A stretch of DNA of 64,000 nt from an uncultured Gammaproteobacteria bacterium (GTDB taxonomy: Bacteria; Pseudomonadota; Gammaproteobacteria; QNFE01; CAZPSE01): contig CAZPSE010000006.1 of assembly GCA_964589575.1 (NCBI GenBank), positions 81-64,080 on the forward strand, read 5' to 3'. The notes under the pieces are model-generated. The model ran no database searches, had not been told where the DNA came from, and saw nothing but the letters and a program-made list of their open reading frames with translations. Positions within the stretch are counted from its first letter, which is position 1. The number at the start of each line of letters is the position of its first letter. Below are positions 1,264 to 50,367 of the stretch, piece after piece. Both the position numbers and the translations under genes were made by a program.

Positions 1264-4200
1264 ATGTCAGATAAAAATCACGATACCGAAGAACTTGGTT
1301 TAGCTGGAAAACTTGCTAAAAACTTTATACATTCACCCTTATCACCGCTACTACTCATTGTTTCCTTAGCCGTTGGAATTATTGGTTTAATATTAACACC
1401 ACGTCAAGAAGACCCGCAAATTTCGGTACCTATGGTCGATATTTTTGTTGGTTATCCTGGTGCATCAGCTGATCAAGTTTCAACCTTAGTTGCCGTTCCA
1501 TTAGAACGAATGATGAGCGAAATAACAGGTGTTCGGCATGTTTATTCTGCCTCTCAAAGAGAAATGGGAATGGTGACCGTGCAATTTGAAGTAGGCCAAG
1601 AAATGGAAAAATCCATTTTTAAAGTTTATGACAAAATTCATTCTAATAAGGATGTTATGCCCGCAGGCGTACAAGGTGCTTTAATTAAACCAAAAGCCGT
1701 TGACGATGTACCAGCTGTTACTTTAACGTTGTGGTCAGAAGAGGTTGCTGATTTTGAATTGCGCTTGTTAGCATTGGATGTTTTACAAAAAATAAAAGAA
1801 ATACCAGACACAAGCGCAAGTTTTATAGTGGGTGGTCGTTCTAAACAGGTACGTATAGAACCCTTGCCAGAAAAACTAGCAGGTTACGGTGTAACTTTAG
1901 GTGCCCTAGCTAATACCATCAAAACAGCCAATTCAGAAATGGGAGTAGGCACGGTCGAAGCATGGGATTCATCATTTAGTATTTATACAGGGTCGTTTTT
2001 AACTAACGCAGCAGACATTGAAAAACTAGTCGTAGCCATTATTAATGGTGCGCCCGTATATATGAGTGATGTTGCCAATGTAATAGATGGCCCAGCTGAA
2101 ACCAAAAATTTAGTACATTACTATACAGGTAACGCCTATCAAGGTGATGCGAACCTCGATATGGGCGCGCCAGCGGTTACAATCGCCATAGCCAAGAAAA
2201 AAGGTAGTAATGGTGTCACCGTAGCACAAAACATTTTAGATAGAGTTGAGTCATTAAAAGGCACGCTAATACCCAATAACGTAATGGTAGAAATCACCCG
2301 TAATTACGGTGAAAGTGCAGACAAAAAAGTAAGTTCATTGCTTCAAAAATTATTTATTGCCACTGGCATCGTCGTATTGTTGGTTTGGGGGTTTTTAGGT
2401 ATTCAAGCTGCAACAGTTGTTTTAATTGTCATCCCCGTTGTAATATTAATAACTGTTTTTGCTGCGCTAGTACTGGGTTTGACTATTGATAGGGTTAGTT
2501 TATTCGCACTAATTTTCTCAATTGGAATACTAGTAGATGATGCTATTGTTGTGGTCGAAAATATCTATCGGCGATGGTTAATGCGAGGTGAAATTCATAC
2601 AGGAACATCTATAGATGCTGTTAGAGAAGTAGGAAACCCTACTATTTTAGCGACCTTTACAGTTATAGCAGCGTTAATGCCAATGGGTATGGTACGCGGA
2701 ATGATGGGTCCGTATATGAGCCCGATTCCTATATTGGGTTCAGTAGCCATGATATTTTCATTGTTTGCTGCATTTACTTTTACGCCTTGGTTGGTAATGC
2801 GTATAAAACCTTCTATGAAGCGTTTAAAACAAATGGAAGCAAAAGAGCATAAACAAGAAGTGTTTTATGAAAAATTGTATCGCTCAATTTTGATTCCATT
2901 AATTTCAAGCAAAGCAAAAGGGCGTCTATTTTTAACATTCTTGTTTGTCTTGTTTTTTGCAAGTTGTTCTTTGTTTTACTTTAATGTTGTAAAAGTAAAA
3001 ATGTTGCCATTAGACAATAAGCCAGAATTTAACGTGGTTATTAATTTCCCAGCGGGTACGGCACTACCTGTTACCGAAAATTTAATACGAAAGCTGTCTC
3101 ATAAAATAAAACAAATTGAAGAAGTAACCGCTTTGCAAACTTATGCAGGCACCGCATCGCCTTATAACTTTAATGGTTTGGTACGTCATACTTATTTACG
3201 AGAATCACCTTGGCAGGGCGATATACAAGTTCAGTTAACCGATAAAGAAACGAGAGAGCGCACAAGTCACGAAATAGCCGTAGCTGTACGCGCCATGGTT
3301 AGGCCTATTGTTAAAGCTTATGGTGCAAAAGTACAAGTAGTAGAAATGCCACCAGGTCCTCCAGTACTTCAATCTGTTGTTGCAGAAGTTTATGGACCCA
3401 CAGATGAAATTAGGCGACAAGTCGCGACAGATTTAACCGCTATGTTTGAAGAGGCTGAAAATTTAACAGATGTTGATAATTTAATGCAAAAAGAATATGA
3501 CGTTTGGCGTTTTGAAGTGAATACTGAAAAAGCAAACCGCCGTGGTGTTTCTGTTGAAGAAATTAATAAAAACTTGCTTATGGCAATGGGTGGTTTTGTT
3601 TTAGGCGACATTAAAGTAGGGCATGTATTAGAACCACGTGAAATTGTTTTACAAATACCCATGTCTGCAAGAGCAGAGTTTTCGAGAATAGGTACCTTGC
3701 CCATTATGAGTAGTCAAGGTTATACCATTCCACTTTCTGAACTGGGCGAATTTATAAAAGACAAACAAAATAAAATTATTTTCCATAAAGACTTAAGACC
3801 CGTAGAGTTTGTAACGGCAGAAGTTCAAGCACCATTACCTGCACCTGTATACGGCATGTTTGAGGTGGGCGATAAGTTGGACGATTATACCGCACCAGAT
3901 GGTGTTAAATTGTCGGGCGAATGGTTTGGCCCACCTGCAACATCGGATGTTTCAGGGTTTGAGTGGACAGGGGAGTGGACAGTAACCTTTGAAACATTTA
4001 GAGACATGGGTATAGCATTTGGAGGCGCAATTTTATTAATTTATATGTTGGTGGTTTGGGAGTTCGGTAACTTCACATTGCCAGCTATCATTATTTCTCC
4101 AATTCCTTTAACGTTAGTTGGTATCATTCCTGGTCACTGGATAATGGGGGCTGAGTTTACCGCAACATCAATGATTGGTTTCATTGCCTTGGCGGGGATA

Positions 4201-5031
4201 ATCGTCAGAAACTCGATATTAATTGTAGATTTTACCAATCAACGAGTTAGAGCTGGTGAAGAGTTAGTCGAGGCTGTGATTACATCTTGCAAAGTAAGAA
4301 CACGGCCAATTTTAATTACCGCTTTAGCTTTAATGGGCGGATCATTGGTTATTCTTGCTGATCCTATATTTCAAGGTATGGCAGTTTCATTGTTGTTTGG
4401 AATGTTTGTATCTACATTATTAACGCTTATTGTTATTCCATTAGGTTGTATTACTGCAAAGTCATCTTTTGTTTTTGATACTGACCCTGACAATGGAGGA
4501 TTTGGCGGAGGTGGACAAGTGTTGCCAAGCTCTACTCCTCCTAGTGATGCGCATGTATCTAAAGTAAAATCGTATGAACCCAGTATTATTGAAAAATTTA
4601 TTGGTTTGTTATCTATAATTGCTATATATATTGGGCTTTTATGGTCAATGTTAATGTCTATTATGCCCGCACCGATAAGAAACTTTTTTGAAAAAGTAAC
4701 AGGCTTTTTAGCCATTATTAAAATTTACTTAGGATTGTTGTTATCGCCTTTATTCGCCTTTTTTAAGTCTAAAGAGCCAGAGCCTACTGCTGTAAAAGCT
4801 CAAGTGCCTGTGCCTGCATCGACAAACACAGATACTAAGGCCAAAGAAGAAACTAAAGCCAAAGAAGACACTAAAGCCAAAGAAGACACTAAAGCCAAAG
4901 AAGACACTATTTCTAAAAAAAGCACATCGAAGAAAAAGGCTACTAGTAAAAAGAAAACAACATCAAGTAAAAAAACAACCAGCAAAAAAAATGTAAGAAG
5001 AGGGATTAAGCTTAAAAAAGATTTGGAGTAA
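1264..5031 (+). CDS. RND (AcrB/HAE-type) inner-membrane transporter with an atypical ~200-aa C-terminal extension and lysine-rich tail
   Basis: 1255 aa. The N-terminal TM1 plus large periplasmic loops and 12-TM architecture are recognisable as AcrB/CzcA family. After TM12 there are two extra hydrophobic segments and a TKAKED x4 repeat followed by an SKKK-rich tail. Confidence 0.85.
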   Translation: MSDKNHDTEELGLAGKLAKNFIHSPLSPLLLIVSLAVGIIGLILTPRQEDPQISVPMVDIFVGYPGASADQVSTLVAVPLERMMSEITGVRHVYSASQREMGMVTVQFEVGQEMEKSIFKVYDKIHSNKDVMPAGVQGALIKPKAVDDVPAVTLTLWSEEVADFELRLLALDVLQKIKEIPDTSASFIVGGRSKQVRIEPLPEKLAGYGVTLGALANTIKTANSEMGVGTVEAWDSSFSIYTGSFLTNAADIEKLVVAIINGAPVYMSDVANVIDGPAETKNLVHYYTGNAYQGDANLDMGAPAVTIAIAKKKGSNGVTVAQNILDRVESLKGTLIPNNVMVEITRNYGESADKKVSSLLQKLFIATGIVVLLVWGFLGIQAATVVLIVIPVVILITVFAALVLGLTIDRVSLFALIFSIGILVDDAIVVVENIYRRWLMRGEIHTGTSIDAVREVGNPTILATFTVIAALMPMGMVRGMMGPYMSPIPILGSVAMIFSLFAAFTFTPWLVMRIKPSMKRLKQMEAKEHKQEVFYEKLYRSILIPLISSKAKGRLFLTFLFVLFFASCSLFYFNVVKVKMLPLDNKPEFNVVINFPAGTALPVTENLIRKLSHKIKQIEEVTALQTYAGTASPYNFNGLVRHTYLRESPWQGDIQVQLTDKETRERTSHEIAVAVRAMVRPIVKAYGAKVQVVEMPPGPPVLQSVVAEVYGPTDEIRRQVATDLTAMFEEAENLTDVDNLMQKEYDVWRFEVNTEKANRRGVSVEEINKNLLMAMGGFVLGDIKVGHVLEPREIVLQIPMSARAEFSRIGTLPIMSSQGYTIPLSELGEFIKDKQNKIIFHKDLRPVEFVTAEVQAPLPAPVYGMFEVGDKLDDYTAPDGVKLSGEWFGPPATSDVSGFEWTGEWTVTFETFRDMGIAFGGAILLIYMLVVWEFGNFTLPAIIISPIPLTLVGIIPGHWIMGAEFTATSMIGFIALAGIIVRNSILIVDFTNQRVRAGEELVEAVITSCKVRTRPILITALALMGGSLVILADPIFQGMAVSLLFGMFVSTLLTLIVIPLGCITAKSSFVFDTDPDNGGFGGGGQVLPSSTPPSDAHVSKVKSYEPSIIEKFIGLLSIIAIYIGLLWSMLMSIMPAPIRNFFEKVTGFLAIIKIYLGLLLSPLFAFFKSKEPEPTAVKAQVPVPASTNTDTKAKEETKAKEDTKAKEDTKAKEDTISKKSTSKKKATSKKKTTSSKKTTSKKNVRRGIKLKKDLE
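4834..4905 (+). repeat. 4 x 18-bp perfect/near-perfect in-frame tandem repeat (actaaRgccaaagaagaM) encoding TKAKEE/TKAKED
   Basis: Read directly in the sequence. Units start at 4834, 4852, 4870 and 4888. Confidence 0.95.
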
Positions 5032-5044
5032 AAAGTGAATTATT

Positions 5045-5503
5045 ATGAAGACTAATTTATTCTTATTAAGCTTTAGTTTAATAAGTTTTATAGCAACTGC
5101 AGATACTAATATAAAGCCGCCTCCAGGGCCTTATATTAGTAAGTCTATGGCGATGAAGTTACAACAGGTATTAGAAACAACTGTAGATGCGCCACATTTT
5201 AATTCGTACCCAGAGTTTGAAAATTCAAATTCAAACAAGCTAATAATCATTCCTCAAGCAAAACTTCAAAAACCGGTTATAAGCAAAAATATACAAAAAG
5301 AGGATGCTTTTCAAAAGTATCCCCGTATTAATCAACAAAATTTAACCGAACCATTAGTGATTAAAAATAAAAACATAATGTATGATCAAAAGACGAATGA
5401 TAATACAAAAAATTTTTGGGATGTTGATCCTAAATTTTTACACGATGAAAATAAAGAATCACATTTACCCAAAAATAAGTTTTTAGAATATCCACCTCTA
5501 TAA
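5045..5503 (+). CDS. Secreted protein of unknown function (signal peptide)
   Basis: 152 aa with a hydrophobic N-terminal signal. It starts 14 bp after the RND stop, and its stop overlaps the next start (taATG). I recognise no conserved motifs. Confidence 0.5.
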   Translation: MKTNLFLLSFSLISFIATADTNIKPPPGPYISKSMAMKLQQVLETTVDAPHFNSYPEFENSNSNKLIIIPQAKLQKPVISKNIQKEDAFQKYPRINQQNLTEPLVIKNKNIMYDQKTNDNTKNFWDVDPKFLHDENKESHLPKNKFLEYPPL

Positions 5504-7431: not shown

Positions 7432-8928
7432 ATGTTTAATAAACCCAGCCAAGAAATAGAAGAAAAACTAAATAATTTAGTTACTCATCTAAAAGAAGAA
7501 AACCCAATATTAATTGAAGTAGTTGATGATTTTAGATCAATAGACTTAGTAGGCCGAAGATTAGGGCTAATAACTGCGGATGAATCGTATACTGCTAAAA
7601 TTCCTTGGTGGCCATTGATTTCGATTTTAGGCACATTTTCTTCTGGTAAATCTACGTTTATTAATGATTTTATGGGTAGGACACTACAGCGATCGGGTAA
7701 TCAAGCTGTAGATGATAAATTTACTGTGGTGTGTTACAGCGACAAAGAAGATGGGCGAGTATTACCTGGAATCGCTTTAGATGCTGATTTACGTTTTCCA
7801 TTTTTTAAAATGAGTGACGAAATTGACAAGGTAAGTGAAGGAGAAGGACGACGTATTGATTCTTATTTACAATTAAAAACGACCACCTCAGAAATTATGA
7901 AAGGCAAAATTTTAATTGATTCGCCTGGCTTTGATGCAGATGCTCAGCGAACATCTACATTAAAAATTACCGATCATATTATAGATTTGTCTGACTTAGT
8001 TTTAGTGTTTTTTGATGCACGCCACCCAGAACCGGGTGCAATGCAAGATACATTAGAACATTTGGTTGGTAATACCATTCATCGTCCAGATTCAAACAAG
8101 TTTTTATTTATCTTAAACCAAATTGATACAACAGCGAGAGAGAATAACCCCGAAGATGTTGTAGGTGCATGGCAGCGCGCGTTATCTCAAAAAGGTTTAA
8201 CAGCTGGAAGGTTTTATTGTATTTACAATGAAAAAGCCTCTGTGCCGATAGAGGACGATACATTAAGAGCGCGTTTTAAACAGAAAAAAGATGAAGACTT
8301 AGGCGACATTATGGACCGAATTCATCAAGTAGAAGTAGAACGTTCTTATAGAATTGTCGGTTCATTAGAACAAATAGCGCAAGATATAAAAGAAGTGCAT
8401 GTTCCTAATATAAAAGGCTACCTTAATAGTTGGTCTAAAAAAGTAATAACCTCAGATTTTATTTTGTATGCTCTTATTATTATTGCTTGTTTATACCTTT
8501 CTATAAGTAATGGTTACTGGAATGGGTTGAGTTTAAGTGTTCCATTTTTTAATGAACTGGGCATGGCATTAAAAGGCTTAGTTGTTTTTATGGTCTTTTT
8601 TGTTTTAGCGGGTATTCACTTTATGAATCGCTCGATAATGGTTCGGTGGGTCAATAAAACGATTGTAAAAAATGGTGATGAGCAGTATCAGCGAGCGTTT
8701 AAGAAGAACACGGTTTTTTGGCGAAGTATATTTAGAGATAACCCAGTAGGCTGGAGAAGGAACAGTAAAAAACGTTTAAAAACAATTATTTCTAATACGT
8801 CTAAGTTTGTACAAAATTTAAATAATGAATTTACTAATCCATCTGGCAAAGTTGCAGAAGCTACTGCGCAAGTGGTTGAAAAAACTACTGCGGTTGAAAA
8901 TACAGAAGTAAAAGAAGCAACTAAATAA
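7432..8928 (+). CDS. Dynamin-family/large P-loop GTPase with C-terminal double-TM anchor
   Basis: G1 GTFSSGKSTFIN, G3 DSPG and an NQID G4-like motif. Two hydrophobic helices lie at about aa 340-400, followed by a basic C-terminal tail. This is the last gene before a strong terminator. Confidence 0.6.
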   Translation: MFNKPSQEIEEKLNNLVTHLKEENPILIEVVDDFRSIDLVGRRLGLITADESYTAKIPWWPLISILGTFSSGKSTFINDFMGRTLQRSGNQAVDDKFTVVCYSDKEDGRVLPGIALDADLRFPFFKMSDEIDKVSEGEGRRIDSYLQLKTTTSEIMKGKILIDSPGFDADAQRTSTLKITDHIIDLSDLVLVFFDARHPEPGAMQDTLEHLVGNTIHRPDSNKFLFILNQIDTTARENNPEDVVGAWQRALSQKGLTAGRFYCIYNEKASVPIEDDTLRARFKQKKDEDLGDIMDRIHQVEVERSYRIVGSLEQIAQDIKEVHVPNIKGYLNSWSKKVITSDFILYALIIIACLYLSISNGYWNGLSLSVPFFNELGMALKGLVVFMVFFVLAGIHFMNRSIMVRWVNKTIVKNGDEQYQRAFKKNTVFWRSIFRDNPVGWRRNSKKRLKTIISNTSKFVQNLNNEFTNPSGKVAEATAQVVEKTTAVENTEVKEATK

Positions 8929-36371: not shown

Positions 36372-38636
36372 ATGCCTTCAAAAAAGACCAGCAATAAAAA
36401 AGCGAAAAGCCAAGCCAAAAGCGCGCCCAAGCCCAAAAAAACGCAGGTAAAACCCACACCGGCAAAAAAATCAGCAAAGGTAAAGCTCAGCAAAGGTAAA
36501 AAGCTAACGCCCAAGGCTAAAAAGAAAAAAGCCAAGGCTAAAAGAAAAGCCTTTTATAAAAAACACAAAAAAATAATTAACCGTTCAATAGGGTTTTTAG
36601 TATTAATTAGTATAATGTTTTTTGTTTATGCTTACTTTCAATATAACAACATTGTAAATAATTTTGATAAAGAAAATCAACAACCTATAAAAATATACTC
36701 AAGTAGTTTAGAGGTGTATGCAGGGCAAAAAATCTCAATAAACCACCTTAAAACCTATTTGCAAGAGCTGGGCTACGTACAAAAAAAACAAGCCATATCC
36801 GCCAATACATTTGGCATTCATCAACAACAAATAACCATAAATAACCGCGCCTTTAATACCGCAGAACAAACAATAAACGCCCACAAAATTAAAATAACCC
36901 TCAACAATGGCGCAGTAGAAACACTGTATTCGTTTAATAAAAAACAAAACATCGCCTTTGTAACCTTACCGCCGGTTAAATTAACGTCGTTACATACAGG
37001 CGTATATACAGACTTTGACCCCATAGCAATAAAAGACGTACCCCAAACCTTTATAAACACACTATTGCAAATAGAAGATAAGCGCTTTTACGACCATATC
37101 GGTTTTGATATTTACTCCATCGTCCGAGCCTTTTATAGCAATGTGCAAGCAGGGCGCGTAGTGCAAGGGGCAAGTACCCTAACCCAACAATATGTAAAAA
37201 CACGCTATTTAACTAATGAACGGTCTTTAATACGTAAAATTAAAGAACTGCTTATCAGCGTGGTATTAGAAATTAACTTTACAAAAAACCAAATACTGCA
37301 AGCCTATATCAACTCGGTTTTTTTAGGGCAAAAAGGCAATTACCGCATACGCGGATTTAATTTAGCCAGCCATTATTTTTTTGGAAAGTCCTTACAAAAC
37401 ATCAACATATCAGAAATGGCAAGCCTCGTCGCCTTAGTAAAAGCCCCGTCTAGCTACGTTATAAAAACAGGCAACGCTAAAGCACTAAAACGTCGAAACT
37501 TAATATTAAATGTATTGTACGAAAATAAAAAAATAGATGAAAAACTGCTTACTATTGCCAAAAACTACCCACTAACTGCAAAACAACACCAATCAGGCAC
37601 GTCGATATTTTCAAGCTATATAGGGTTAATAAAGAACGAGTTAAAACAGGTAAACCAATCGCTAAGTTGGACACAAAACAACCGCACCTTGTATACCAAC
37701 ATGGACATAAACAAACAGCTCGCCTTACAAAAAATAGTCGCCAACAATGTAACAATACTAGAAAAAAACAAACACTTTGCGCCAAACACCTTAGAAGCGG
37801 CAGCAATAATAGTCGATAAAAGCAACGGCAATATATTAGCCGCCGTGGCCAATAAAAATGACAAACGTTTCGGCTGGAACCGCCTACTGTATATGAAGCG
37901 ACCAATAGGCTCATTAATTAAACCCTTTGTGTACTACACCGCACTCAACCAATTTGGCTATAGCGCCAATTCGTTAATAAACGATGCACCCGTAAAACTA
38001 AAAATAAAAAACGCGGTACATTGGCAACCTAAAAATTACGATAAAAAATACCACGGCGAAGTAACGCTAACGCAAGCACTTAGCCAATCTTACAATTTAG
38101 CAACGGTAAACTTGGGTTTAGATATTGGTGTCAACAGTGTCATAAAAACCCTCAAACAAGCAGGTTACAAAAAACCACTGCCTAACTATGCATCACTTTT
38201 TTTAGGCGCGACAGAAATGACCCCGCTAGAAATTACCTCGTTGTATTTACCCCTAGCCAACGGCGGCTTTACCTCACCATTACGCACCTTATCAAAAGCC
38301 ACAAAAAAAGGGCAAGTAAATATCGCCAACTCATTTGTTAGTAAAGCGGTGCTTAACTACGGCACAGTAGCCATCTTGTCAAACATGTTAAAAGAGGCCG
38401 TTAGCACGGGTACAGCGCGCTCTTTAAACTGGCGATTAAAACAAAAACCCATAAGTGTAGCAGGCAAAACAGGCACAAGTAACAACCTAAAAGACAGTTG
38501 GTTTATAGCCTATGACAAAAAGTACCTAGTAATGGTATGGCTAGGCAGAGACGACAACAAATCATCAAGCTACAGCGGTAGTAGCGGTGCTTTACCCATA
38601 TATGCCGACATAAAAAATTATTTAGATGAAAACTGA
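36372..38636 (+). CDS. mrcB: Bifunctional class A penicillin-binding protein, PBP1B-like, with ~65-aa lysine-rich N-terminal cytoplasmic tail
   Basis: GT51 motifs EDKRFYDHIGFD and GASTLTQQ, plus transpeptidase SxxK (SLIKP) and KTGT. A TM helix lies at about aa 70-90 and there is a ~130-aa insert before the GT domain (UB2H-like position). Confidence 0.78.
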   Translation: MPSKKTSNKKAKSQAKSAPKPKKTQVKPTPAKKSAKVKLSKGKKLTPKAKKKKAKAKRKAFYKKHKKIINRSIGFLVLISIMFFVYAYFQYNNIVNNFDKENQQPIKIYSSSLEVYAGQKISINHLKTYLQELGYVQKKQAISANTFGIHQQQITINNRAFNTAEQTINAHKIKITLNNGAVETLYSFNKKQNIAFVTLPPVKLTSLHTGVYTDFDPIAIKDVPQTFINTLLQIEDKRFYDHIGFDIYSIVRAFYSNVQAGRVVQGASTLTQQYVKTRYLTNERSLIRKIKELLISVVLEINFTKNQILQAYINSVFLGQKGNYRIRGFNLASHYFFGKSLQNINISEMASLVALVKAPSSYVIKTGNAKALKRRNLILNVLYENKKIDEKLLTIAKNYPLTAKQHQSGTSIFSSYIGLIKNELKQVNQSLSWTQNNRTLYTNMDINKQLALQKIVANNVTILEKNKHFAPNTLEAAAIIVDKSNGNILAAVANKNDKRFGWNRLLYMKRPIGSLIKPFVYYTALNQFGYSANSLINDAPVKLKIKNAVHWQPKNYDKKYHGEVTLTQALSQSYNLATVNLGLDIGVNSVIKTLKQAGYKKPLPNYASLFLGATEMTPLEITSLYLPLANGGFTSPLRTLSKATKKGQVNIANSFVSKAVLNYGTVAILSNMLKEAVSTGTARSLNWRLKQKPISVAGKTGTSNNLKDSWFIAYDKKYLVMVWLGRDDNKSSSYSGSSGALPIYADIKNYLDEN

Positions 38637-42407: not shown

Positions 42408-43148
42408 ATGGCTAAAATTGATTCAAACCCTTTAGGTATCTCTAATGGTTTAATAAATAAATATAAGAATATAAAAAGGCCATACCAAAAATACAAAAAA
42501 TCACCCGTTACTTTCGAAGTGGCAGAGGATTGTTTTGTAAATTGTCGCGCCATAGTGGTAAAAGACAAAACCTATGTTGTGCCACGGCACATTAATCGTG
42601 TTGATATTTGTTCAGGAAAAAATAATAAAGGCACACATGGCTGGCAATTACGTTATAAAAAAATATCTAAATTTTATAATGACCGTAAACAATCGTCTAT
42701 TAAGTTAGGCTTAGAAAAAGCCAAAAATGACTTACGAAAAGGTTATGTAGCTAAAGACCATATAGAAATTGTAAATCAAAAACTAAATAAAAAAAATTTA
42801 AAAACTAAAAAAATAAAACTCATCCCTGGTGTTAATATCGCCTCGTCAACATTGGCTAAAACAATGGTAAAACACTACAACGTAGTTTGTTGTATTTCTG
42901 TTTTAAACGGTAAAGCAAGGCAGTTTACAAAATACTTATCGGTAGAAGAACGTTTAACCCAAGAAAAACTGAACAAGGCTTTAGATGTGCTTTTAACCTT
43001 ACGAAAATATTCGGAACATTTGTACCATACAAAACAGCCAGAAATTGCCAAAATACTAAGTGTAAAACACATTACGCCATTATTAATAAAAGAGTATTGC
43101 CCTAAAATTAAATACCCAACAATCCAACAAGTAGTCAAGGCGTATTAA
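42408..43148 (+). CDS. Basic (Lys/Arg-rich) orphan protein, possible DNA-binding, unknown function
   Basis: 246 aa. It is preceded by a 118-bp AT-rich gap. A weak AP2/integrase-DNA-binding-like stretch (GTHGWQLRYKK) is present. I could not assign a family. Confidence 0.4.
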   Translation: MAKIDSNPLGISNGLINKYKNIKRPYQKYKKSPVTFEVAEDCFVNCRAIVVKDKTYVVPRHINRVDICSGKNNKGTHGWQLRYKKISKFYNDRKQSSIKLGLEKAKNDLRKGYVAKDHIEIVNQKLNKKNLKTKKIKLIPGVNIASSTLAKTMVKHYNVVCCISVLNGKARQFTKYLSVEERLTQEKLNKALDVLLTLRKYSEHLYHTKQPEIAKILSVKHITPLLIKEYCPKIKYPTIQQVVKAY

Positions 43149-43952: not shown

Positions 43953-44238
43953 TGTTTTAACTGCCATTTTCGTAATTACTGGTGCACTGTTTTTTTTAGC
44001 CGGTACCGTAGGTCTGCTGCGCTTTCCAGATGTTTATACCAGAATTCATGCTTTAACCAAAGCCGATAATTTAGGCCTTGGGTTAATAATAGTTGGGCTT
44101 ATTTTACAAGCAGAATCTCTTATATTTGTGGCTAAACTAATATTTATTTGGCTGTTAGTATTACTTTCTGGAGCGGGTGTTGCGCATTTAATTGCAACCG
44201 CTGCACGACAGCGAGGTGTTAAAACGTGGAAGCCATAA
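43939..44238 (+). CDS. Antiporter subunit G (MrpG/MnhG-like)
   Basis: 99 aa, 3 TM helices. Confidence 0.65.
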   Translation: MSMIDVLTAIFVITGALFFLAGTVGLLRFPDVYTRIHALTKADNLGLGLIIVGLILQAESLIFVAKLIFIWLLVLLSGAGVAHLIATAARQRGVKTWKP

Positions 44239-44534
44239 GTTTACTGTTGATATTTGATGTTTTAATCGGTTTAACCTTGCTTTGGCTAGCATGGCAAGCG
44301 TTAAGCAGCCCCGATTTATTTCGTGCTGTTGTGTTATTTATCGCCTTTGGTTTATTAATGGCTTTGGCATGGGTTCGTTTAGACGCGCCAGATGTGGCCC
44401 TAGCAGAAGCGACAATAGGCGCGGGTTTAACCGGTGCATTACTACTTTCCTCGTTGGCGCGTATCCGTTTAGAGTCAAATAGAAGCAAGAACATTAAAAA
44501 TAAAAACAGCATAAGTGCAACGAAAGATACTTAA
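44226..44534 (+). CDS. MrpB N-terminal-like small membrane subunit (DUF4040/MbhD-like)
   Basis: 102 aa, 3 TM helices. It is in the position of MbhD in Mbh/Mrp modules. Confidence 0.5.
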   Translation: MEAISLLLIFDVLIGLTLLWLAWQALSSPDLFRAVVLFIAFGLLMALAWVRLDAPDVALAEATIGAGLTGALLLSSLARIRLESNRSKNIKNKNSISATKDT

Positions 44535-44539
44535 TAACT

Positions 44540-45226
44540 ATGGACGATGACATCAAACAACCGCCTTTATTTATTAGGCTACTACTTATACTGTTGTTAG
44601 GCGGGTTAACGGTAAGTTTGTCGGTGGCTATTTTGTCTTTGCCAGAACAAGCACCAGGTTTAAGTACAGATGTTGCTGAAAATTTAAATAAAAGTGGGGT
44701 AAGCAACCCCGTTACTGCCGTTTTACTTAATTACCGAGCTTACGATACCTTGCTAGAGCTGGGTGTACTGTTTTTAGCATTACTAGGTATTTGGTCGCTT
44801 GGGGAAAGCGCTAAACCCATAAACGCTAAACCAGGCCCTGTATTAGATATACTATCTCGTGTGTTAACACCATTACTTATTTTGGTTGCGGGTTACCTTT
44901 TATGGGTTGGTGCTTATCAACCAGGTGGTGCTTTTCAAGCTGGCGCGGTATTAGGGGCTGCGGGCGTTTTACTGTTATTAAGTGGTTGGCAACTCAATGC
45001 CAAATATGCAGGTTTTGCTTTTCGTGTTAGCGTGGTTGCAGGTTTGCTTATTTTTGTCATTATTGGTTTAACTTTTATCTTGTTTTCTAACCAGTTTCTT
45101 CAATACCCACCTTATTACGCACCCGGTTTGATTTTATTTATAGAAACCGCGGCAACTGTATCTATTGGGATAAGCTTAGTCGCGCTTTTTTTAGGCGGTG
45201 AACCAAAATCGGGGCTACAAAAATGA
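44540..45226 (+). CDS. Antiporter subunit B (MrpB/MnhB-like)
   Basis: 228-aa polytopic membrane protein. Confidence 0.6.
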   Translation: MDDDIKQPPLFIRLLLILLLGGLTVSLSVAILSLPEQAPGLSTDVAENLNKSGVSNPVTAVLLNYRAYDTLLELGVLFLALLGIWSLGESAKPINAKPGPVLDILSRVLTPLLILVAGYLLWVGAYQPGGAFQAGAVLGAAGVLLLLSGWQLNAKYAGFAFRVSVVAGLLIFVIIGLTFILFSNQFLQYPPYYAPGLILFIETAATVSIGISLVALFLGGEPKSGLQK

Positions 45227-45528
45227 GTTCAACATTTTTTTATGCATTAGTGGGCGTAGGTTTATTTAGCATTGGTATCTATGCCTTAATTATTTATGCC
45301 CATTTATTACGTAAAATTCTTGCAATTAATGTTATGGGCAGTGGCGTGTTTTTGGTGTTAGTGGCATTAGCCACACGAACAGGTGCAACCCCAGATGCAG
45401 TACCCCATGCAATGGTTATAACCGGTATTGTAGTTGCGGTATCTGCTACCGCTTTGGCACTGGCATTACTGTTAAAAGTACAATCAGAAACTGGCAGTGT
45501 AGAACTGCCAGAAGAACCGTTGGAGTAG
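45223..45528 (+). CDS. Antiporter subunit C (MrpC/MnhC, NuoK-like)
   Basis: 101 aa, 3 TM helices, NuoK-like. Confidence 0.75.
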   Translation: MSSTFFYALVGVGLFSIGIYALIIYAHLLRKILAINVMGSGVFLVLVALATRTGATPDAVPHAMVITGIVVAVSATALALALLLKVQSETGSVELPEEPLE

Positions 45529-45531
45529 ATA

Positions 45532-46977
45532 TTGATAGAAGGTTTTCATTGGCTAATTTTTGTTATATTTACCCCTCTTATAGGGGCGGTAAGTTGCTTT
45601 TTATGGCCTAAATACAACGTAAAACTGGCATTAATCACAACGTTTTTGTCGGTGTTTAGTGTTGCGGGTCTCACTTGGCAAATTGTCATTTATGGCGCGC
45701 AACGTTATAAATTGGGCGGTTGGGATGCACCGTTAGGTATACATCTTTATGTAGACGGTTTAAGCCTGTTAATGTTAATAATAACGGCTGTTGTAGGTTT
45801 GGCTATTAGTGTTTATTCTTCTGCTTATTTTAAAGCAGAAAAAGCCAAATATTTTTGGCCATTATGGTTGTTTTTGTGGTCGGCTTTAAATGGCTTATTT
45901 GTATCTGCGGATATTTTTAATCTTTTTGTTACATTAGAATTAATAGGTTTATCGGCAGTTGCTTTGGTCGCCTTGTCTGGTGGTGCTAATGCGATAACGT
46001 CTGCAATGCGTTATTTATTAGTGAGTTTACTCGGCTCACTCTTTTACCTTATGGGCGTAGCCTTGCTTTATCACAGTTATGGCACGGTCGATATTATGAT
46101 GTTGGGGCAACAGGCACAATTAACACCCACCATGTGGTTAGCTATCGGTTTAATTACTTCGGGCTTGCTGCTTAAAACTGCACTGTTTCCAATGCATTTT
46201 TGGTTGCCACCGGCACACTCTAGTGCGCCTACACCTGTTAGTGCGTTATTGTCAGCGTTAGTGGTTAAAGCTTCTTTTTATATTTTGTTGCGGTTGTGGT
46301 TAGACGTATTTCCATTAACTATAGAACCTGCAACAATTAATATTGGCATGATTTTAGGTTTGCTAGGTTCGACGGCAATAATTTGGGGCGGCGTTCAAGC
46401 ATTGCGTCAAACACGGTTAAAATTATTGGTTGCTTATTCAACCGTAGTACAAATTGGTTATATGTTTTTGGCCTTTCCTTTAGCAAGTATTTTAGGCTGG
46501 AAAGCCGCGCTTTATTTTGTACTGGCACATGCTGTTGCCAAAACGGCCATGTTTATGGCAGCAGGTAATATTTTGTTTTACGGAGGACATGATCGCATTG
46601 TAGATTTGGACAGAGTTGCCCAGCGTTTGCCCATAACTTTAATAGCATTTGGTGTTGCAGGCGTTAGCCTTATGGGGTTGCCACCAAGTGGTGGCTTTAT
46701 TGCAAAATGGTTATTACTAGAGGCGGCGATTGTTTCCGGTCAATGGTGGTGGGGTTTAATGTTAATAGCTGGGGGGTTACTAACCGGTACCTATGTGTTT
46801 AAAGTTATTGGTTATGCTTTTACAGAAGCAGAATGCCCGCATGAAGCTAAAAAGGTGCCTAAAATTATGGAATGGACGGCATTAATGATGGCTATATTGG
46901 CAATAGTATTGGGTTTTCTTGCACCGGTATTGCTGCCGTTAATGGAAATTGGTACTCCGTTTGGTGAAAGTTTATGA
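45532..46977 (+). CDS. Antiporter subunit D (MrpD-like, NuoN/NuoM family), TTG start
   Basis: 481 aa. It has about 14 TM helices and proton-pumping antiporter-like conserved regions (HFWLPxAH). Confidence 0.75.
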   Translation: MIEGFHWLIFVIFTPLIGAVSCFLWPKYNVKLALITTFLSVFSVAGLTWQIVIYGAQRYKLGGWDAPLGIHLYVDGLSLLMLIITAVVGLAISVYSSAYFKAEKAKYFWPLWLFLWSALNGLFVSADIFNLFVTLELIGLSAVALVALSGGANAITSAMRYLLVSLLGSLFYLMGVALLYHSYGTVDIMMLGQQAQLTPTMWLAIGLITSGLLLKTALFPMHFWLPPAHSSAPTPVSALLSALVVKASFYILLRLWLDVFPLTIEPATINIGMILGLLGSTAIIWGGVQALRQTRLKLLVAYSTVVQIGYMFLAFPLASILGWKAALYFVLAHAVAKTAMFMAAGNILFYGGHDRIVDLDRVAQRLPITLIAFGVAGVSLMGLPPSGGFIAKWLLLEAAIVSGQWWWGLMLIAGGLLTGTYVFKVIGYAFTEAECPHEAKKVPKIMEWTALMMAILAIVLGFLAPVLLPLMEIGTPFGESL

Positions 46978-48473
46978 TGAATTGGGAAAGCTGGATGCCA
47001 CTATCAGTTGTTCTTAGCTCATTTATTGTTGCGCTATTAATTTTCCCCTTGTCAGAAGAGAAAGCGAAAACCCGTATGATTTTAAACATGGCAGGTGCTT
47101 TGTTTAAGCTGGCATTGGTTATTGCCATGTTGTGGGGCGTGTATAACGGTTATCATTTTGAAACCCGCATAGCGATGTTACCTGGGCTAGACTTTGTTTT
47201 AAGAGCTGATGCCTTGTCTATGTTGTTTGTAACGCTTTCTGCGGGTCTTTGGTTATTAACTACCGTTTACGCTATTGGTTATCTCGAAGATTCCCCTCAT
47301 CGAAGCCGTTTTTTTGGTTTTTTTAGCCTTTGTGTAACGGCAACAGTAGGTGTTGCACTGTCAGGTAATTTACTTACATTTTTGGTGTTTTACGAACTCT
47401 TAACACTGGCAACCTACCCATTAATTGTACACAGAGGAACAGAAGCTGCACGTAAAGCAGGGCGGACTTATCTTGTTTATACCCTATCTGGTGGTGCAAT
47501 GCTTCTGCTTGGTACAATTTGGTTATACACCATTACTGGCACGCTAGAATTTACTCCTCAGGGGTTTGTTTCAGCCTTAGACAGTTCCTACCATCCGTCA
47601 CTTATTATTATTTTTGTATTGTTAATGATTGGCTTGGGTGTCAAAGCGGCACTTATACCTTTTCATGGCTGGCTGCCTCAATCTATGGTTGCCCCTGCAC
47701 CGGTAAGTGCCTTATTGCATGCGGTGGCCGTTGTAAAAGCCGGGGCGTTTGGCATTATTAGGGTGCTTTACGATGTGTTTGGAATAGAATTTAGTGCCAC
47801 CTTGGGCGTAACTTTACCCTTAGCAATTATTGCCGGAGTAACCGTTATATATGGCTCGACGCGGGCGCTCTTTCAGGACGATTTAAAACGACGATTGGCA
47901 TTCTCCACCGTCAGTCAAGTTTCTTACATTATTCTTGGTGTTGCTATAGTGGGCCCAGTAGCCACCATTGGTGGCATGGTGCATTTAGTGCACCAAGGGG
48001 TAATGAAAATAACCCTGTTTTTTTGCGCCGGTAACTTTGCAGAAACGCTGGGTATACACAAAATAAGTGAAATGAACGGGGTAGGTAAACGCATGCCATG
48101 GACTATGGCGGCTTTTACCATTGGTGCTTTTGGTATGATTGGTGCGCCCCCACTTGCGGGTTTTATTAGTAAATGGTATTTAGGCGTGGGTGCGTTAGAG
48201 GCAGGCCAAGGCTGGGTAATATACATTTTGGTAGGCAGTAGTTTGCTAAATGCCGCTTATTTTTTACCTATTTTATACGCCGCTTGGTTTAAACCACAAA
48301 TAGGAAAATGGCCAGCCGAACGCAAATTTGGCTCTTTTGAAACCGCTTTAGCATTATTGGCACCGCCGGTTATAACAGCAATATTGGCGGTGTTATTGGG
48401 TTTACTGGCATCGACTCCTTTTAGCCCGCTAGAGTGGGCGCGTTTTATTACCTTAAAGGAATATCGATTGTGA
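46974..48473 (+). CDS. Second MrpD/NuoM-like antiporter subunit
   Basis: 499 aa with FHGWLP and VHQGVMK motifs typical of NuoM/MrpD. Confidence 0.75.
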   Translation: MMNWESWMPLSVVLSSFIVALLIFPLSEEKAKTRMILNMAGALFKLALVIAMLWGVYNGYHFETRIAMLPGLDFVLRADALSMLFVTLSAGLWLLTTVYAIGYLEDSPHRSRFFGFFSLCVTATVGVALSGNLLTFLVFYELLTLATYPLIVHRGTEAARKAGRTYLVYTLSGGAMLLLGTIWLYTITGTLEFTPQGFVSALDSSYHPSLIIIFVLLMIGLGVKAALIPFHGWLPQSMVAPAPVSALLHAVAVVKAGAFGIIRVLYDVFGIEFSATLGVTLPLAIIAGVTVIYGSTRALFQDDLKRRLAFSTVSQVSYIILGVAIVGPVATIGGMVHLVHQGVMKITLFFCAGNFAETLGIHKISEMNGVGKRMPWTMAAFTIGAFGMIGAPPLAGFISKWYLGVGALEAGQGWVIYILVGSSLLNAAYFLPILYAAWFKPQIGKWPAERKFGSFETALALLAPPVITAILAVLLGLLASTPFSPLEWARFITLKEYRL

Positions 48474-48540
48474 AACATTATCTAAGCTTGGCTCTAGTAA
48501 TTGACGTGTTAAAACTGCCGAGTGTTTTAGTGACTACCGC

Positions 48541-50367
48541 TTGGCTAAGCAAAGGCGTGTCTCTTTTATGATGGCATTAACACCCTCACTATTTTTATTA
48601 ATGGTGCCTACTTTACCTTTTTTGCTAGCAGTAGCATTAATGGTCAGTTCTAAACGTGACAAACTGGTTTTTTTGGCACCTTGGGTTATTTTACCCGCGT
48701 TATTGTTGCCCATAATATTACCAGTAGGGTTTGAGCTTGAACTGCCGTGGATGTTATTAGGTGTTCATTTAGGTTATGACGATACTGCTAGAGTTTTTTT
48801 GATTTTTAGTTCAATACTTTGGTTAGTGGCCAGTATATATGCCTTTGGCTATTTTGATAATAAGGCTGAAAAAACAAACTTTTTTAGTTACTTCATGTTG
48901 GCTATGACGGGTAATTTTGGTCTTATACTGGCCCAAGACGTACTGATGTTTTTTACCTTCTTCACTTTAATGAGCCTTGCCAGCTATGGTTTGGTGGTAC
49001 ACAACCGTGGTGTAGAGGCTTTAAGAGCAGGGCGTATTTACATCATTTTAGTGATTGTTGCAGAAGTCACTTTGTTTGCCGGCTTTGTTATGGCCACTTT
49101 AGCGGCAGGTAGTACAGAGTTTGTTGATTTTCGCAGATTAATCCCTTTGTCAGATTCTAAAGACGTAATTATGGCATTGGTATTTTTAGGTTTTGGTATT
49201 AAAGCTGGGGTAATTGGTTTGCATGTTTGGTTACCATTAGCGCACCCCGTTGCGCCCACGCCAGCTAGTGCGGTTCTTTCGGGGGCTATGATAGCGGCAG
49301 GTTTATTGGGTTGGATGCGTGTAATGCCACTTGGCGAAGCGGCTTTACCCTTTTGGGGTGCCGTTATGATTATTGCCGGCATGGTTGCTACTTTTTACGC
49401 CGTTTTTGTTGGGGTATTACAACGTAACGCAAAAACAGTTTTGGCTTACTCTAGCATTAGCAGCATGGGCATTATGACTATGGCGACTGGTTTAGGGCTT
49501 ATTGCGCCTAATAATTGGCCATTTATTTTAACTGCTATTTTAGTCTATGTTATGCAGCATGGCCTTGCTAAGGGTGCATTATTTCTTGGCGTGGGGTTAT
49601 GTGCAAAACCTGTCGTATCTCGTAGCTTGCGCTACTTGTTTATTGTGGCATTACTCATTCCCGTACTCACTTTGGCGGGTGCGCCACTAACAAGTGGATT
49701 AATTGCTAAGCATTTACTAAATATACAGTTAATAGAAGCCGCATCGCCTTGGGCAAATTGGGTGCAAATGCTACTACCTTGGAGTGCCATAGCAAGCAGT
49801 GCACTTTTAATTCGTTTTTTATTTTTAGTTTGGCCACAAGCAAATGATACAAGCGACTCTAAAGCGGTTTTAACTACCCCTGTAATGTTAGCAAGCTATA
49901 TTAAATGGGGTTCTTGGTTAGCATTGGTTGCCGTAGTTGCACTTAGCCCGTGGTTGGTTTCGTTAATAATAATTAAAGATGGCTCGACACCCTATTACTG
50001 GTCAATAGCATCATCAATTAGCGCGTTGTGGTCTATAGTATTGGCCTTAACCGTAGCGGCAGGCGCATGGTTTATTACACGCCATACCCTGTTTTATAAA
50101 AAGTTGGCTATACCCGCAGGTGATATGGTTATTATTGTAGAACAATGGCTATGGCCGCAACTCGTGTTAATGGTATCAATGGTTTTTACTGTATTAAATA
50201 AACCAAGGTTATTTTTATTAGCCAAAATAAATGAATGGCTTAATGGTGACAATTTAACTTCTGTGATGACGAGTTTAGAGGTGCGATGTAAACACTGGAC
50301 AGTGGCAACAACTTTGTTGCTGGTACTGGTTGCTGTGTTTGTTTTTACCCTTAGCGTTTATGGTTAA
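48541..50367 (+). CDS. MrpA/NuoL-like large antiporter subunit (lacks the MrpB-like C-terminal domain)
   Basis: 608 aa, polytopic, with a WLPLAHPVAPTP motif. Confidence 0.7.
   Translation: MAKQRRVSFMMALTPSLFLLMVPTLPFLLAVALMVSSKRDKLVFLAPWVILPALLLPIILPVGFELELPWMLLGVHLGYDDTARVFLIFSSILWLVASIYAFGYFDNKAEKTNFFSYFMLAMTGNFGLILAQDVLMFFTFFTLMSLASYGLVVHNRGVEALRAGRIYIILVIVAEVTLFAGFVMATLAAGSTEFVDFRRLIPLSDSKDVIMALVFLGFGIKAGVIGLHVWLPLAHPVAPTPASAVLSGAMIAAGLLGWMRVMPLGEAALPFWGAVMIIAGMVATFYAVFVGVLQRNAKTVLAYSSISSMGIMTMATGLGLIAPNNWPFILTAILVYVMQHGLAKGALFLGVGLCAKPVVSRSLRYLFIVALLIPVLTLAGAPLTSGLIAKHLLNIQLIEAASPWANWVQMLLPWSAIASSALLIRFLFLVWPQANDTSDSKAVLTTPVMLASYIKWGSWLALVAVVALSPWLVSLIIIKDGSTPYYWSIASSISALWSIVLALTVAAGAWFITRHTLFYKKLAIPAGDMVIIVEQWLWPQLVLMVSMVFTVLNKPRLFLLAKINEWLNGDNLTSVMTSLEVRCKHWTVATTLLLVLVAVFVFTLSVYG

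Follow-up and report, generated by a model that had tools for sequence, protein, structure and literature searches.

Near the 5′ end of the window, a 64,000-nt stretch of DNA from an uncultured gammaproteobacterium, lies a gene for a resistance–nodulation–division (RND) permease whose transport core is followed by a 193-residue C-terminal extension. The extension carries near its end a seven-residue motif, RRGI(R/K/Q)L(K/N), which across the related loci is found on RND permeases only and which has repeatedly been lost together with the gene for a small ParA/MinD-family ATPase, most similar among solved structures to ParF, encoded a few genes downstream. We consider it about an even bet (probability roughly 0.5) that the tail is a cytoplasmic leash presenting a docking or activating peptide to this co-encoded ATPase, because the motif fits, in composition, structural context and co-inheritance, what has been described of the peptides with which partner proteins engage such ATPases. 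An earlier note on the window had singled out the tail for its repeats and its lysines. The terminal motif and the linked genes for the ParA-like ATPase, a tetratricopeptide-repeat (TPR) protein and a dynamin-like GTPase, which hold most of the biological information, were absent from that note.

First, the motif is a conserved island in a variable sequence. Our comparison covered 80 genome loci (L003–L082) and a set of metagenome loci, about 160 related loci with about 10,000 open reading frames (ORFs) in total. In 45 long tails the seven positions are occupied by Arg (40 tails), Arg (43), Gly (45), Ile (45), Arg, Lys or Gln (33, 7 and 4), Leu (41) and Lys or Asn (39 and 6), and in all 45 the motif lies 0–27 residues from the C-terminus (median 8). 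The residues that follow it are net acidic, with a median net charge of −2; the 40 residues before it have a median net charge of +8, falling to −10 in some tails. As a conserved island of seven residues that closes a disordered tail of drifting composition, it has the properties of a short linear interaction motif. It occurs 41 times among the 6628 ORFs of the genome-locus set and 20 times among the 3755 ORFs of the metagenome-locus set, each time on an RND ORF, and RRGI(R/K)LK has a single occurrence in all six frames of the window. Copies of the motif on other proteins or on a split tail gene were looked for among the same ORFs and none was found. The searchable literature, which leaves out most subscription journals, returned neither the motif string nor a link between RND, ParA-like and dynamin-like proteins, and ‘undescribed’ is therefore a provisional term.

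Second, the motif and the ParA-like gene are inherited together. Of the genome loci that were seeded on the RND protein, contain its gene in full and extend 7 kb or more downstream of it, 30 have both, 2 have the motif only (L002 and L072), none has the ParA-like gene only and 22 have neither (Fisher p = 3.5e-13, phylogeny ignored). On a neighbour-joining tree of RND cores, parsimony requires 7 changes of motif state and 8 of ParA state, at least 5 of them coincident. In these comparisons the motif follows the ATPase and not the other neighbours: three loci (L039, Thiomicrorhabdus marina; L065; and L074, Thiofilum flexile) keep a dynamin-like gene and a TPR-family match and have neither ParA-like gene nor motif. 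In four further loci (L014, L016, L018 and L033) motif and ParA-like gene are both present and no dynamin-like gene lies in range. A pseudogene or remnant of the ParA gene was sought by tblastn in the exceptional loci, L039, L065 and L074 among them, and none was found.

Third, searches seeded from the other end of the gene cluster converge on the same arrangement. In a metagenome scan seeded with the dynamin-like protein, 16 of the 20 loci with at least 8.4 kb of upstream sequence contain an RND gene, and the motif is present on every RND protein whose C-terminus fell inside the locus. All three long contigs recovered with the ParA-like protein as the seed read MFP (membrane fusion protein), RND (1283–1426 aa, ending in RRGIRLK), ParA-like, TPR and Dynamin_N, in that order.

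The ATPase itself resembles the small partition ATPases. Its best solved relatives are TP228 ParF (4dzz) and 5u1g, at E 4e-15, and its deviant Walker A motif with the signature lysine (NLKGGTGKST, aa 7–16) is conserved in 52 orthologues. Orthologues identified by phmmer and jackhmmer have E values of 1e-58 to 1e-76, and some 30 of the 80 genome loci carry the gene. Like TP228 ParF, the protein is about 209 aa long, has the deviant Walker A motif with its signature lysine and has no N-terminal DNA-binding domain; unlike it, the window’s ATPase is chromosomal, has no ParG-like gene beside it and has as its conserved neighbours the genes of the pump, the TPR protein and the dynamin-like GTPase. 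In the clusters examined, no gene for a ParB- or ParG-like centromere-binding protein stands beside the ParA-like gene, its neighbours being the TPR and periplasmic-protein genes. The NCBIfam model ParA_partition (NF041546) gives 136 bits, below its cut-off of 180, and the BcsQ and ArsA models of NCBIfam and Pfam match it weakly. It has no C-terminal amphipathic membrane-targeting helix.

As a rule, the partners of ParA/MinD ATPases engage them through a terminus that is disordered and positively charged (PMC10241942). Residues 15–23 of ParG bind ParF, with Gly16 and Arg19 critical (PMC5393062), and the partner peptide lies in a disordered, positively charged terminus in which the central Arg and Lys are interchangeable (PMC12462528). 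Reviews extend this scheme to the partners that serve plasmids, chromosomes, microcompartments, flagella, chemoreceptor arrays and the divisome (PMC10241942, PMC11407121). The RND tail shares with ParB, ParG, SopB, McdB, PomX and MinE a short basic-plus-aliphatic peptide in a disordered basic terminus and a cognate ATPase gene nearby. Of the features that recur among such partners, it has the basic disordered region bearing a motif and the co-inheritance with an ATPase, and it departs from them in that the peptide is not N-terminal. At the fifth motif position the RND proteins use Arg, Lys or Gln, against Arg or Lys at the centre of the partner peptides (PMC12462528). The setting differs too: in ParB- and ParG-type systems the peptide is N-terminal and belongs to a dedicated adaptor protein, whereas here it is C-terminal and belongs to the presumed cargo, a polytopic membrane transporter, and the binding is a prediction.

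The extension that carries the motif begins where solved RND pumps end. PF00873 (ACR_tran) spans residues 19–1060 of the permease (profile positions 3–1015 of 1021, E 1e-140), a full-length match to the AcrB/AcrD/AcrF model of the RND superfamily, with its 12 transmembrane helices and two large periplasmic loops, and a sequence search of the PDB returned TriC (6vej) and MdtB as the best solved chains, along with CmeB, CusA and others. The alignments to these chains span the whole core and stop at query residue 1060–1071. Because both the Pfam core and the PDB matches end there, about 193 residues (nt 4450–5028) exceed the solved pumps, so that the extension of about 200 aa described in the earlier note is real. 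We modelled residues 541–1255 with AlphaFold2 from a 66-sequence alignment, and the tail divides into a series of segments (Table 1). The proximal linker has a predicted local distance difference test score (pLDDT) below 50 at residues 1077–1103 and a sequence that is unconserved among homologues. Two hydrophobic segments follow, at tail residues 44–65 and 83–106 by hydropathy; both are helical in the model (10-residue block-mean pLDDT of about 85–89) and together form a helix-turn-helix hairpin, in agreement with the two extra helices that had been proposed. At the DNA level nt 4586–4620 and 4685–4719 are 71% identical at a spacing of 99 nt, and on this repeat evidence the two helices are an internal duplication of one element. 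Beyond them, the four 18-bp repeats that had been placed at 4834–4905 were recovered by Tandem Repeats Finder as a slightly longer in-frame array of 4.4 copies (score 139, 95% matches), and a second repeat search agreed. The Lys/Ser/Thr-rich stretch after the array, likewise reported before, reaches a net charge of +16 per 40 aa. Residues 1169–1248 have pLDDT below 50 throughout, and the distal tail is predicted to be disordered. The final residues of the protein read …KKTTSKKNVRRGIKLKKDLE.

Table 1. Features of the RND locus, with coordinates in the window
Feature	Coordinates	Strand	Basis
Periplasmic adaptor (MFP) of the RND pump, 381 aa	75..1220	+	TIGR01730 RND_mfp, Pfam HlyD_D23
RND permease, 1255 aa: core aa 19–1060 plus 193-aa C-terminal extension	1264..5031	+	ACR_tran E 1e-140
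Proximal tail linker, aa 1063–1107, Gly/Pro/Ser/acidic-rich	4450..4584	+	AlphaFold2, homologue alignment
Two hydrophobic helices, aa 1108–1133 and 1136–1167	4585..4764	+	Hydropathy, AlphaFold2
18-bp × 4.4 in-frame tandem repeat encoding (D/E)TKAKE units	4830..4909	+	Tandem Repeats Finder
Lys/Ser/Thr-rich basic low-complexity stretch	~4906..4995	+	Charge scan, AlphaFold2
Conserved C-terminal motif RRGIKLK, aa 1245–1251	4996..5016	+	Sole match in six frames of the window
Short C-terminal end KDLE and stop codon	5017..5031	+	Translation
Predicted secreted protein, 152 aa	5045..5503	+	N-terminal signal-like sequence in translation
Predicted periplasmic protein, conserved cluster member, 243 aa	5503..6234	+	Weak DUF4412 match
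ParF-like (small ParA/MinD-family) ATPase, 209 aa	6256..6885	+	Pfam CbiA/AAA_31/MipZ
Membrane-anchored TPR protein, 175 aa	6887..7414	+	Weak TPR matches
Dynamin-like GTPase, 498 aa, two hydrophobic helices in C-terminal half	7432..8928	+	Pfam Dynamin_N E 6e-14

The same architecture is widespread, and the supposition that the extension is specific to one lineage does not hold. The best 120 homologues of the permease (55–69% identity) are nearly all 1100–1450 aa long and come from Gammaproteobacteria, Alphaproteobacteria and Magnetococcales; the extension is found in Chromatiales, Thiotrichales, Ectothiorhodospiraceae, Thiomicrospira-type taxa, bivalve symbionts, Magnetococcales and several alphaproteobacterial groups. 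Tails that bear the motif are 129–343 aa long, and homologous tails cannot be aligned apart from the terminal motif and a hydrophobic element of about 35–40 aa, of the type PLWxRIW…M.FYL.RG.FLLL. This element is present in one copy in most homologues. Besides the window, an uncultured member of the Sneathiellales (L003) carries it twice (…MAFYAVRALLYFAW…), an independent duplication. The sequences suggest that the element has recurrently been duplicated in tandem.

The spacer between the hydrophobic element and the motif evolves through expansion and contraction of repeats, since 19 of 52 long tails carry in-frame tandem repeats with unrelated units (the periods listed are multiples of three, with one exception); by this comparison the TKAKED array of the window is a recent local case. 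The prediction that the array varies in length is borne out by a close relative, L163 (GCA_054032215.1), whose ParA-like protein is 85% identical and whose RND tail ends in …IKDDTKAKKAPAATTKKKSASKKKTQSKKASSSKKKTTSKKKASSKKTARRGIKLKKDLD: it has one DTKAK unit against four in the window and keeps the basic stretch distal to it, the motif and the terminal KDL(D/E). No second contig of the same species that spans the 18-bp array was found, and the copy-number comparison rests on L163. An independent short-read contig from Logan (L165, SRR9822617) is 100% identical to the window over 3157 nt, covering the last 150 nt of the RND gene and 3 kb 3′ of it. It begins at window position 4880, within the 18-bp array, which indicates that the array can break short-read assembly and says nothing on copy-number polymorphism. 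The L163 contig also stops inside the RND tail, and the low-complexity DNA of the tail seemingly fragments assemblies. Tails encoded by such DNA may be under-reported for this reason. In the reduced genomes of Vesicomyosocius clam symbionts (L056 and L062), the MFP and RND genes are kept, with a tail of 77 aa that lacks the motif, and without the cytoplasmic partners.

For the motif to meet a cytoplasmic ATPase, the tail would have to lie on the cytoplasmic side of the inner membrane. The C-terminus of AcrB-type pumps is cytoplasmic, and four homologues (L037, L043, L047 and L058) lack the hydrophobic element and yet retain the basic tail, the motif and both neighbouring genes. For these two reasons we infer, by homology, that the tail and its motif are cytoplasmic throughout the family. 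If tails with and without the hydrophobic element are both cytoplasmic, the element leaves sidedness unchanged, and we take it to be a hairpin or an in-plane element.

These features can be assembled into a model. The tether would start with the disordered proximal linker; the optional hydrophobic hairpin, duplicated in this genome, would keep the tail close against the membrane's inner face; and a fast-evolving, repeat-prone, strongly basic and disordered spacer, within which the TKAKED repeats would be a local expansion, would follow. At its end RRGI(R/K/Q)L(K/N) would dock onto and activate the ParF-like ATPase encoded a few genes downstream, playing the part of the basic-plus-aliphatic peptides of ParB, ParG and McdB, except that it is C-terminal and an integral part of the cargo. 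Since AcrB and other RND pumps of solved structure are trimers, each pump would by analogy carry the tag three times. Spatial organization or regulation of the pump would then fall to the ATPase, acting with the co-encoded TPR membrane protein and with the dynamin-like GTPase, which is anchored in the membrane. In this scheme the tail probably acts as a tether; direct contact between motif and ATPase, and any positioning that results, are predictions of the model.

Several points weigh against this model. The evidence for docking is comparative throughout, and the association statistics are uncorrected for phylogeny except for the parsimony count on the neighbour-joining tree. Two genomes, L002 (Thiorhodospira) and L072, with 10 kb of flank each, have the motif without a ParA-like gene in reach, and the metagenome locus L157 has the motif and a dynamin-like gene with no ParA-like gene within 3.8 kb downstream; in all three the ATPase could be encoded elsewhere in the genome. 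Covariation gives no help, as the best mutual information between motif position 5 (R/K/Q) and columns of the ParA alignment does not exceed that for the MFP and dynamin-like controls. The peptide of the RND protein is C-terminal, in contrast to the N-terminal position of the partner peptides known for ParA/MinD ATPases. No obvious matrix-binding feature was verified in the ParA-like ATPase family. Finally, most homologues have a single hydrophobic element of about 36 aa; should it cross the membrane once, as a genuine single-pass helix, the tail would end up in the periplasm, in conflict with the model.

Once docked, the ATPase might either place pump assemblies in space or, by analogy with BcsQ and ArsA, regulate them or assist their assembly with the use of ATP. 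A bolder version of the proposal makes this RND subfamily a new class of cargo for ParA/MinD-type ATPases, in which the ATPase reads a C-terminal tag on a disordered leash and distributes or segregates the pumps together with the EHD-like dynamin and the TPR protein. We put this version forward only tentatively, as a possibility that we would wager against.

An alternative that keeps the motif as a docking site and changes its receptor is unlikely, though it deserves the most weight among the rivals. The motif might bind the TPR membrane protein, the dynamin-like GTPase or the cytoplasmic face of the pump itself, as an autoinhibitory plug, and the link to ParA would then be indirect. TPR domains classically bind short terminal peptides, and the near-C-terminal position of the motif is like that of known TPR ligands; the TPR family occurs in 41 loci and adjoins the ParA-like gene where coordinates are listed, the dynamin-like gene is present in most motif-bearing loci, and at L157 it accompanies the motif with no ParA-like gene within 3.8 kb. 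The patterns of loss point the other way. Where the ParA-like gene and the motif have gone, in L039, L065 and L074, the dynamin-like gene and the TPR-family match persist; the motif and the ParA-like gene occur without a dynamin-like gene in range in L014, L016, L018 and L033; and there are 0 loci in which a ParA-like gene stands without the motif.

It is also conceivable, and in our judgement quite unlikely, that the ParA-like protein does bind the tail, not to position the transporter but to remain with it as a fixed subunit for regulation or assembly. Two members of the same ATPase superfamily, ArsA with ArsB and BcsQ in cellulose synthase, are examples of such a role. The weak BcsQ and ArsA matches, the score below the curated ParA partition cut-off and the lack of a gene for a centromere-binding partner in the cluster would all suit such a subunit. 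Its nearest solved relatives, however, are the partition ATPases ParF and TP228 ParA, and a long disordered spacer of variable length (130–340 aa) is better suited to a tether that reaches and captures than to a fixed subunit.

The reading closest to that of the earlier note is improbable. It makes the tail a non-specific anchor, rich in lysine, that binds by its charge to DNA, polyphosphate or anionic lipid, that certain other envelope proteins of this lineage share and whose length the repeats tune. The tail is indeed strongly basic, the tails of some homologues match the histone-H1-like HC2 Pfam model and the number of repeats varies between relatives. The penicillin-binding protein PBP1B of the window (ORF 36372–38636, with UB2H, Transgly and Transpeptidase domains) does have the Lys-rich N-terminal cytoplasmic tail that had been noted at 36372–36570; it is about 65 aa long and precedes the membrane anchor. 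This tail is the most basic segment of the window, with a net charge of +21 per 40 aa. What PBP1B shares with the permease is lysine-richness only, and the basic protein at 42408, for which a similar tail had been claimed, has no 40-aa region at +12, no low-complexity tail and no Pfam match; with the RND motif occurring once in the window, the idea of a tethering motif common to the three proteins falls away. An electrostatic anchor would leave unexplained the near-invariant motif, its exclusivity to RND proteins and its coincident loss with the ParA-like gene; moreover, the stretch ahead of the motif is not basic in every tail that bears it (net charge down to −10), and the extension is not lineage-specific. 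Electrostatic binding could nonetheless be an accessory role of the spacer within the docking model.

The last alternative, that the tail ORF is a sequencing or assembly fusion with an adjacent gene, draws on the start of the Logan contig inside the tandem repeat, where short-read assemblies can break, and has a negligible chance of being right, given that the frame is continuous, that the same core and tail recur in well over 100 independent genomes and metagenomes, that the independent assembly L165 is identical over the overlap and that L163 has a homologous tail end.

The core on which the tail is mounted is, by its profile scores, a distant HAE1-like permease of a separate, unnamed subfamily, as all curated NCBIfam subfamily scores are far under their cut-offs: the best match, RND_permease_2, reaches 434 of the 1250 bits required and CusA/CzcA 244 of 701, and no curated multidrug (HAE1) or heavy-metal (HME) cut-off is reached. 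The core is of the ACR_tran/HAE1-like type, with faint matches only to MMPL. It shares with the HAE1-type pumps AcrB, MexB, MdtB/C and TriC a full-length ACR_tran domain, the motif GILVDDAIVVVEN in transmembrane segment 4 (TM4) and an MFP gene directly upstream; it differs from them in the distance of the relationship (434 versus 1250 bits), in the extra tail and in that no gene for an outer-membrane factor was seen in the gene clusters examined. Within the TM4 motif D425 and D426 are invariant across 37 aligned family members, and they presumably correspond to the proton-relay acidic pair D407/D408 of AcrB. Arg982 is likewise invariant family-wide, in the TM10-equivalent segment GIIVRNSILLVDF (R982–N983, window 4207–4212), and the proton-relay Lys940 of AcrB sits in LSAKNAILIVEF, presumably the corresponding segment. 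The MFP product exceeds the TIGR01730 cut-off (159 against 94.9 bits) and also matches Pfam HlyD_D23, and in the related loci its gene lies directly 5′ of the RND gene almost everywhere.

Comparison of loci places the permease in a conserved module that comprises the MFP, the RND permease, a periplasmic protein, the ParA-like ATPase, the TPR protein and the dynamin-like GTPase. The family of the 243-aa periplasmic protein was found by jackhmmer in 33 loci, between the RND and ParA-like genes where coordinates are listed, and that of the TPR protein is found directly 3′ of the ParA-like gene in the loci with listed coordinates. The dynamin-like GTPase has EHD4 and EHD2 as its nearest solved G domains; its orthologues (E 1e-143 to 1e-184) occur in about 30 of the 80 genome loci, either 3′ of the RND operon or divergently 5′ of it. 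In four loci (L086, L107, L117 and L124) the dynamin-like gene stands by itself, the nearest 8–10 kb or so containing neither an RND nor an MFP nor a ParA-like gene, and the GTPase is therefore not strictly dedicated to the RND pump. One gene of the window's cluster is not part of this module. The 152-aa protein (5045–5503) has no Pfam or NCBIfam match and no homologue by jackhmmer in the roughly 160 related loci, and its gene appears to be a lineage-specific insertion in the operon. It is present in the identical Logan contig too. Elsewhere in the window, at about 44000–50000, the GC content rises to 0.40–0.43 and the AT skew falls to about −0.2 relative to the surroundings.

Relatives of the RND protein number at least 596 in a scan in which each GTDB species was represented by one genome. 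The best 80 of these belong mostly to sulfur oxidizers (Chromatiaceae, Ectothiorhodospiraceae, Thiothrix, Thiolinea, Thiofilum, Thiomargarita, Thiodiazotropha, Sedimenticola and Thiomicrorhabdus/Hydrogenovibrio) and include some Alphaproteobacteria. The subfamily and its module are concentrated in purple sulfur bacteria, in Thiothrix and Thiomargarita, in Thiomicrospira-type taxa and in symbionts of bivalves and worms, as well as in magnetotactic and other Alphaproteobacteria.

A precedent for a localization tail on an RND protein exists in another clade. The cytoplasmic C-terminal domains of MmpL3, MmpL11 and MmpL13 serve localization and protein contacts and are rare among canonical RND proteins (PMC10171966). 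The analogy drawn here is functional: in these permeases too, the RND core is extended at its C-terminus by a large cytoplasmic part that is disordered and non-catalytic. They are of a different RND clade, truncated MmpL3 appeared monomeric in crystal structures, and they have no MFP, no RRGI(R/K)LK motif and no ParA-like or dynamin-like neighbours. Wag31 has been tentatively implicated in the localization of MmpL3, although it is unclear whether the two interact directly, and phosphorylation regulates the MmpL3 C-terminal domain.

Bacteria that place large cargos without linear motors do so, as far as is known, mainly by means of ParA/MinD ATPases. The cargos known so far are the chromosome, plasmids, the divisome, microcompartments, flagella, chemoreceptor arrays and the conjugation machinery, and no transporter is listed among them (PMC10241942, PMC11407121). 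A C-terminal seven-residue tag, in a family spread over hundreds of species and co-inherited with a small ParA-like ATPase, would extend both the range of cargos and the rule that partner peptides are N-terminal, and the RND tail would be the first Gram-negative counterpart of the MmpL3 localization tail. The TKAKED repeat, by which the tail was first noticed, is its least important part, one of many independent expansions in a spacer that seems free to vary in sequence and length. What the locus offers is a compact, uncharacterized module concentrated in sulfur-oxidizing bacteria, symbionts included; if the permease is indeed a cargo of the ATPase, the module would be a self-contained system for placing or remodelling an envelope transport site in sulfur-oxidizing and related Proteobacteria.

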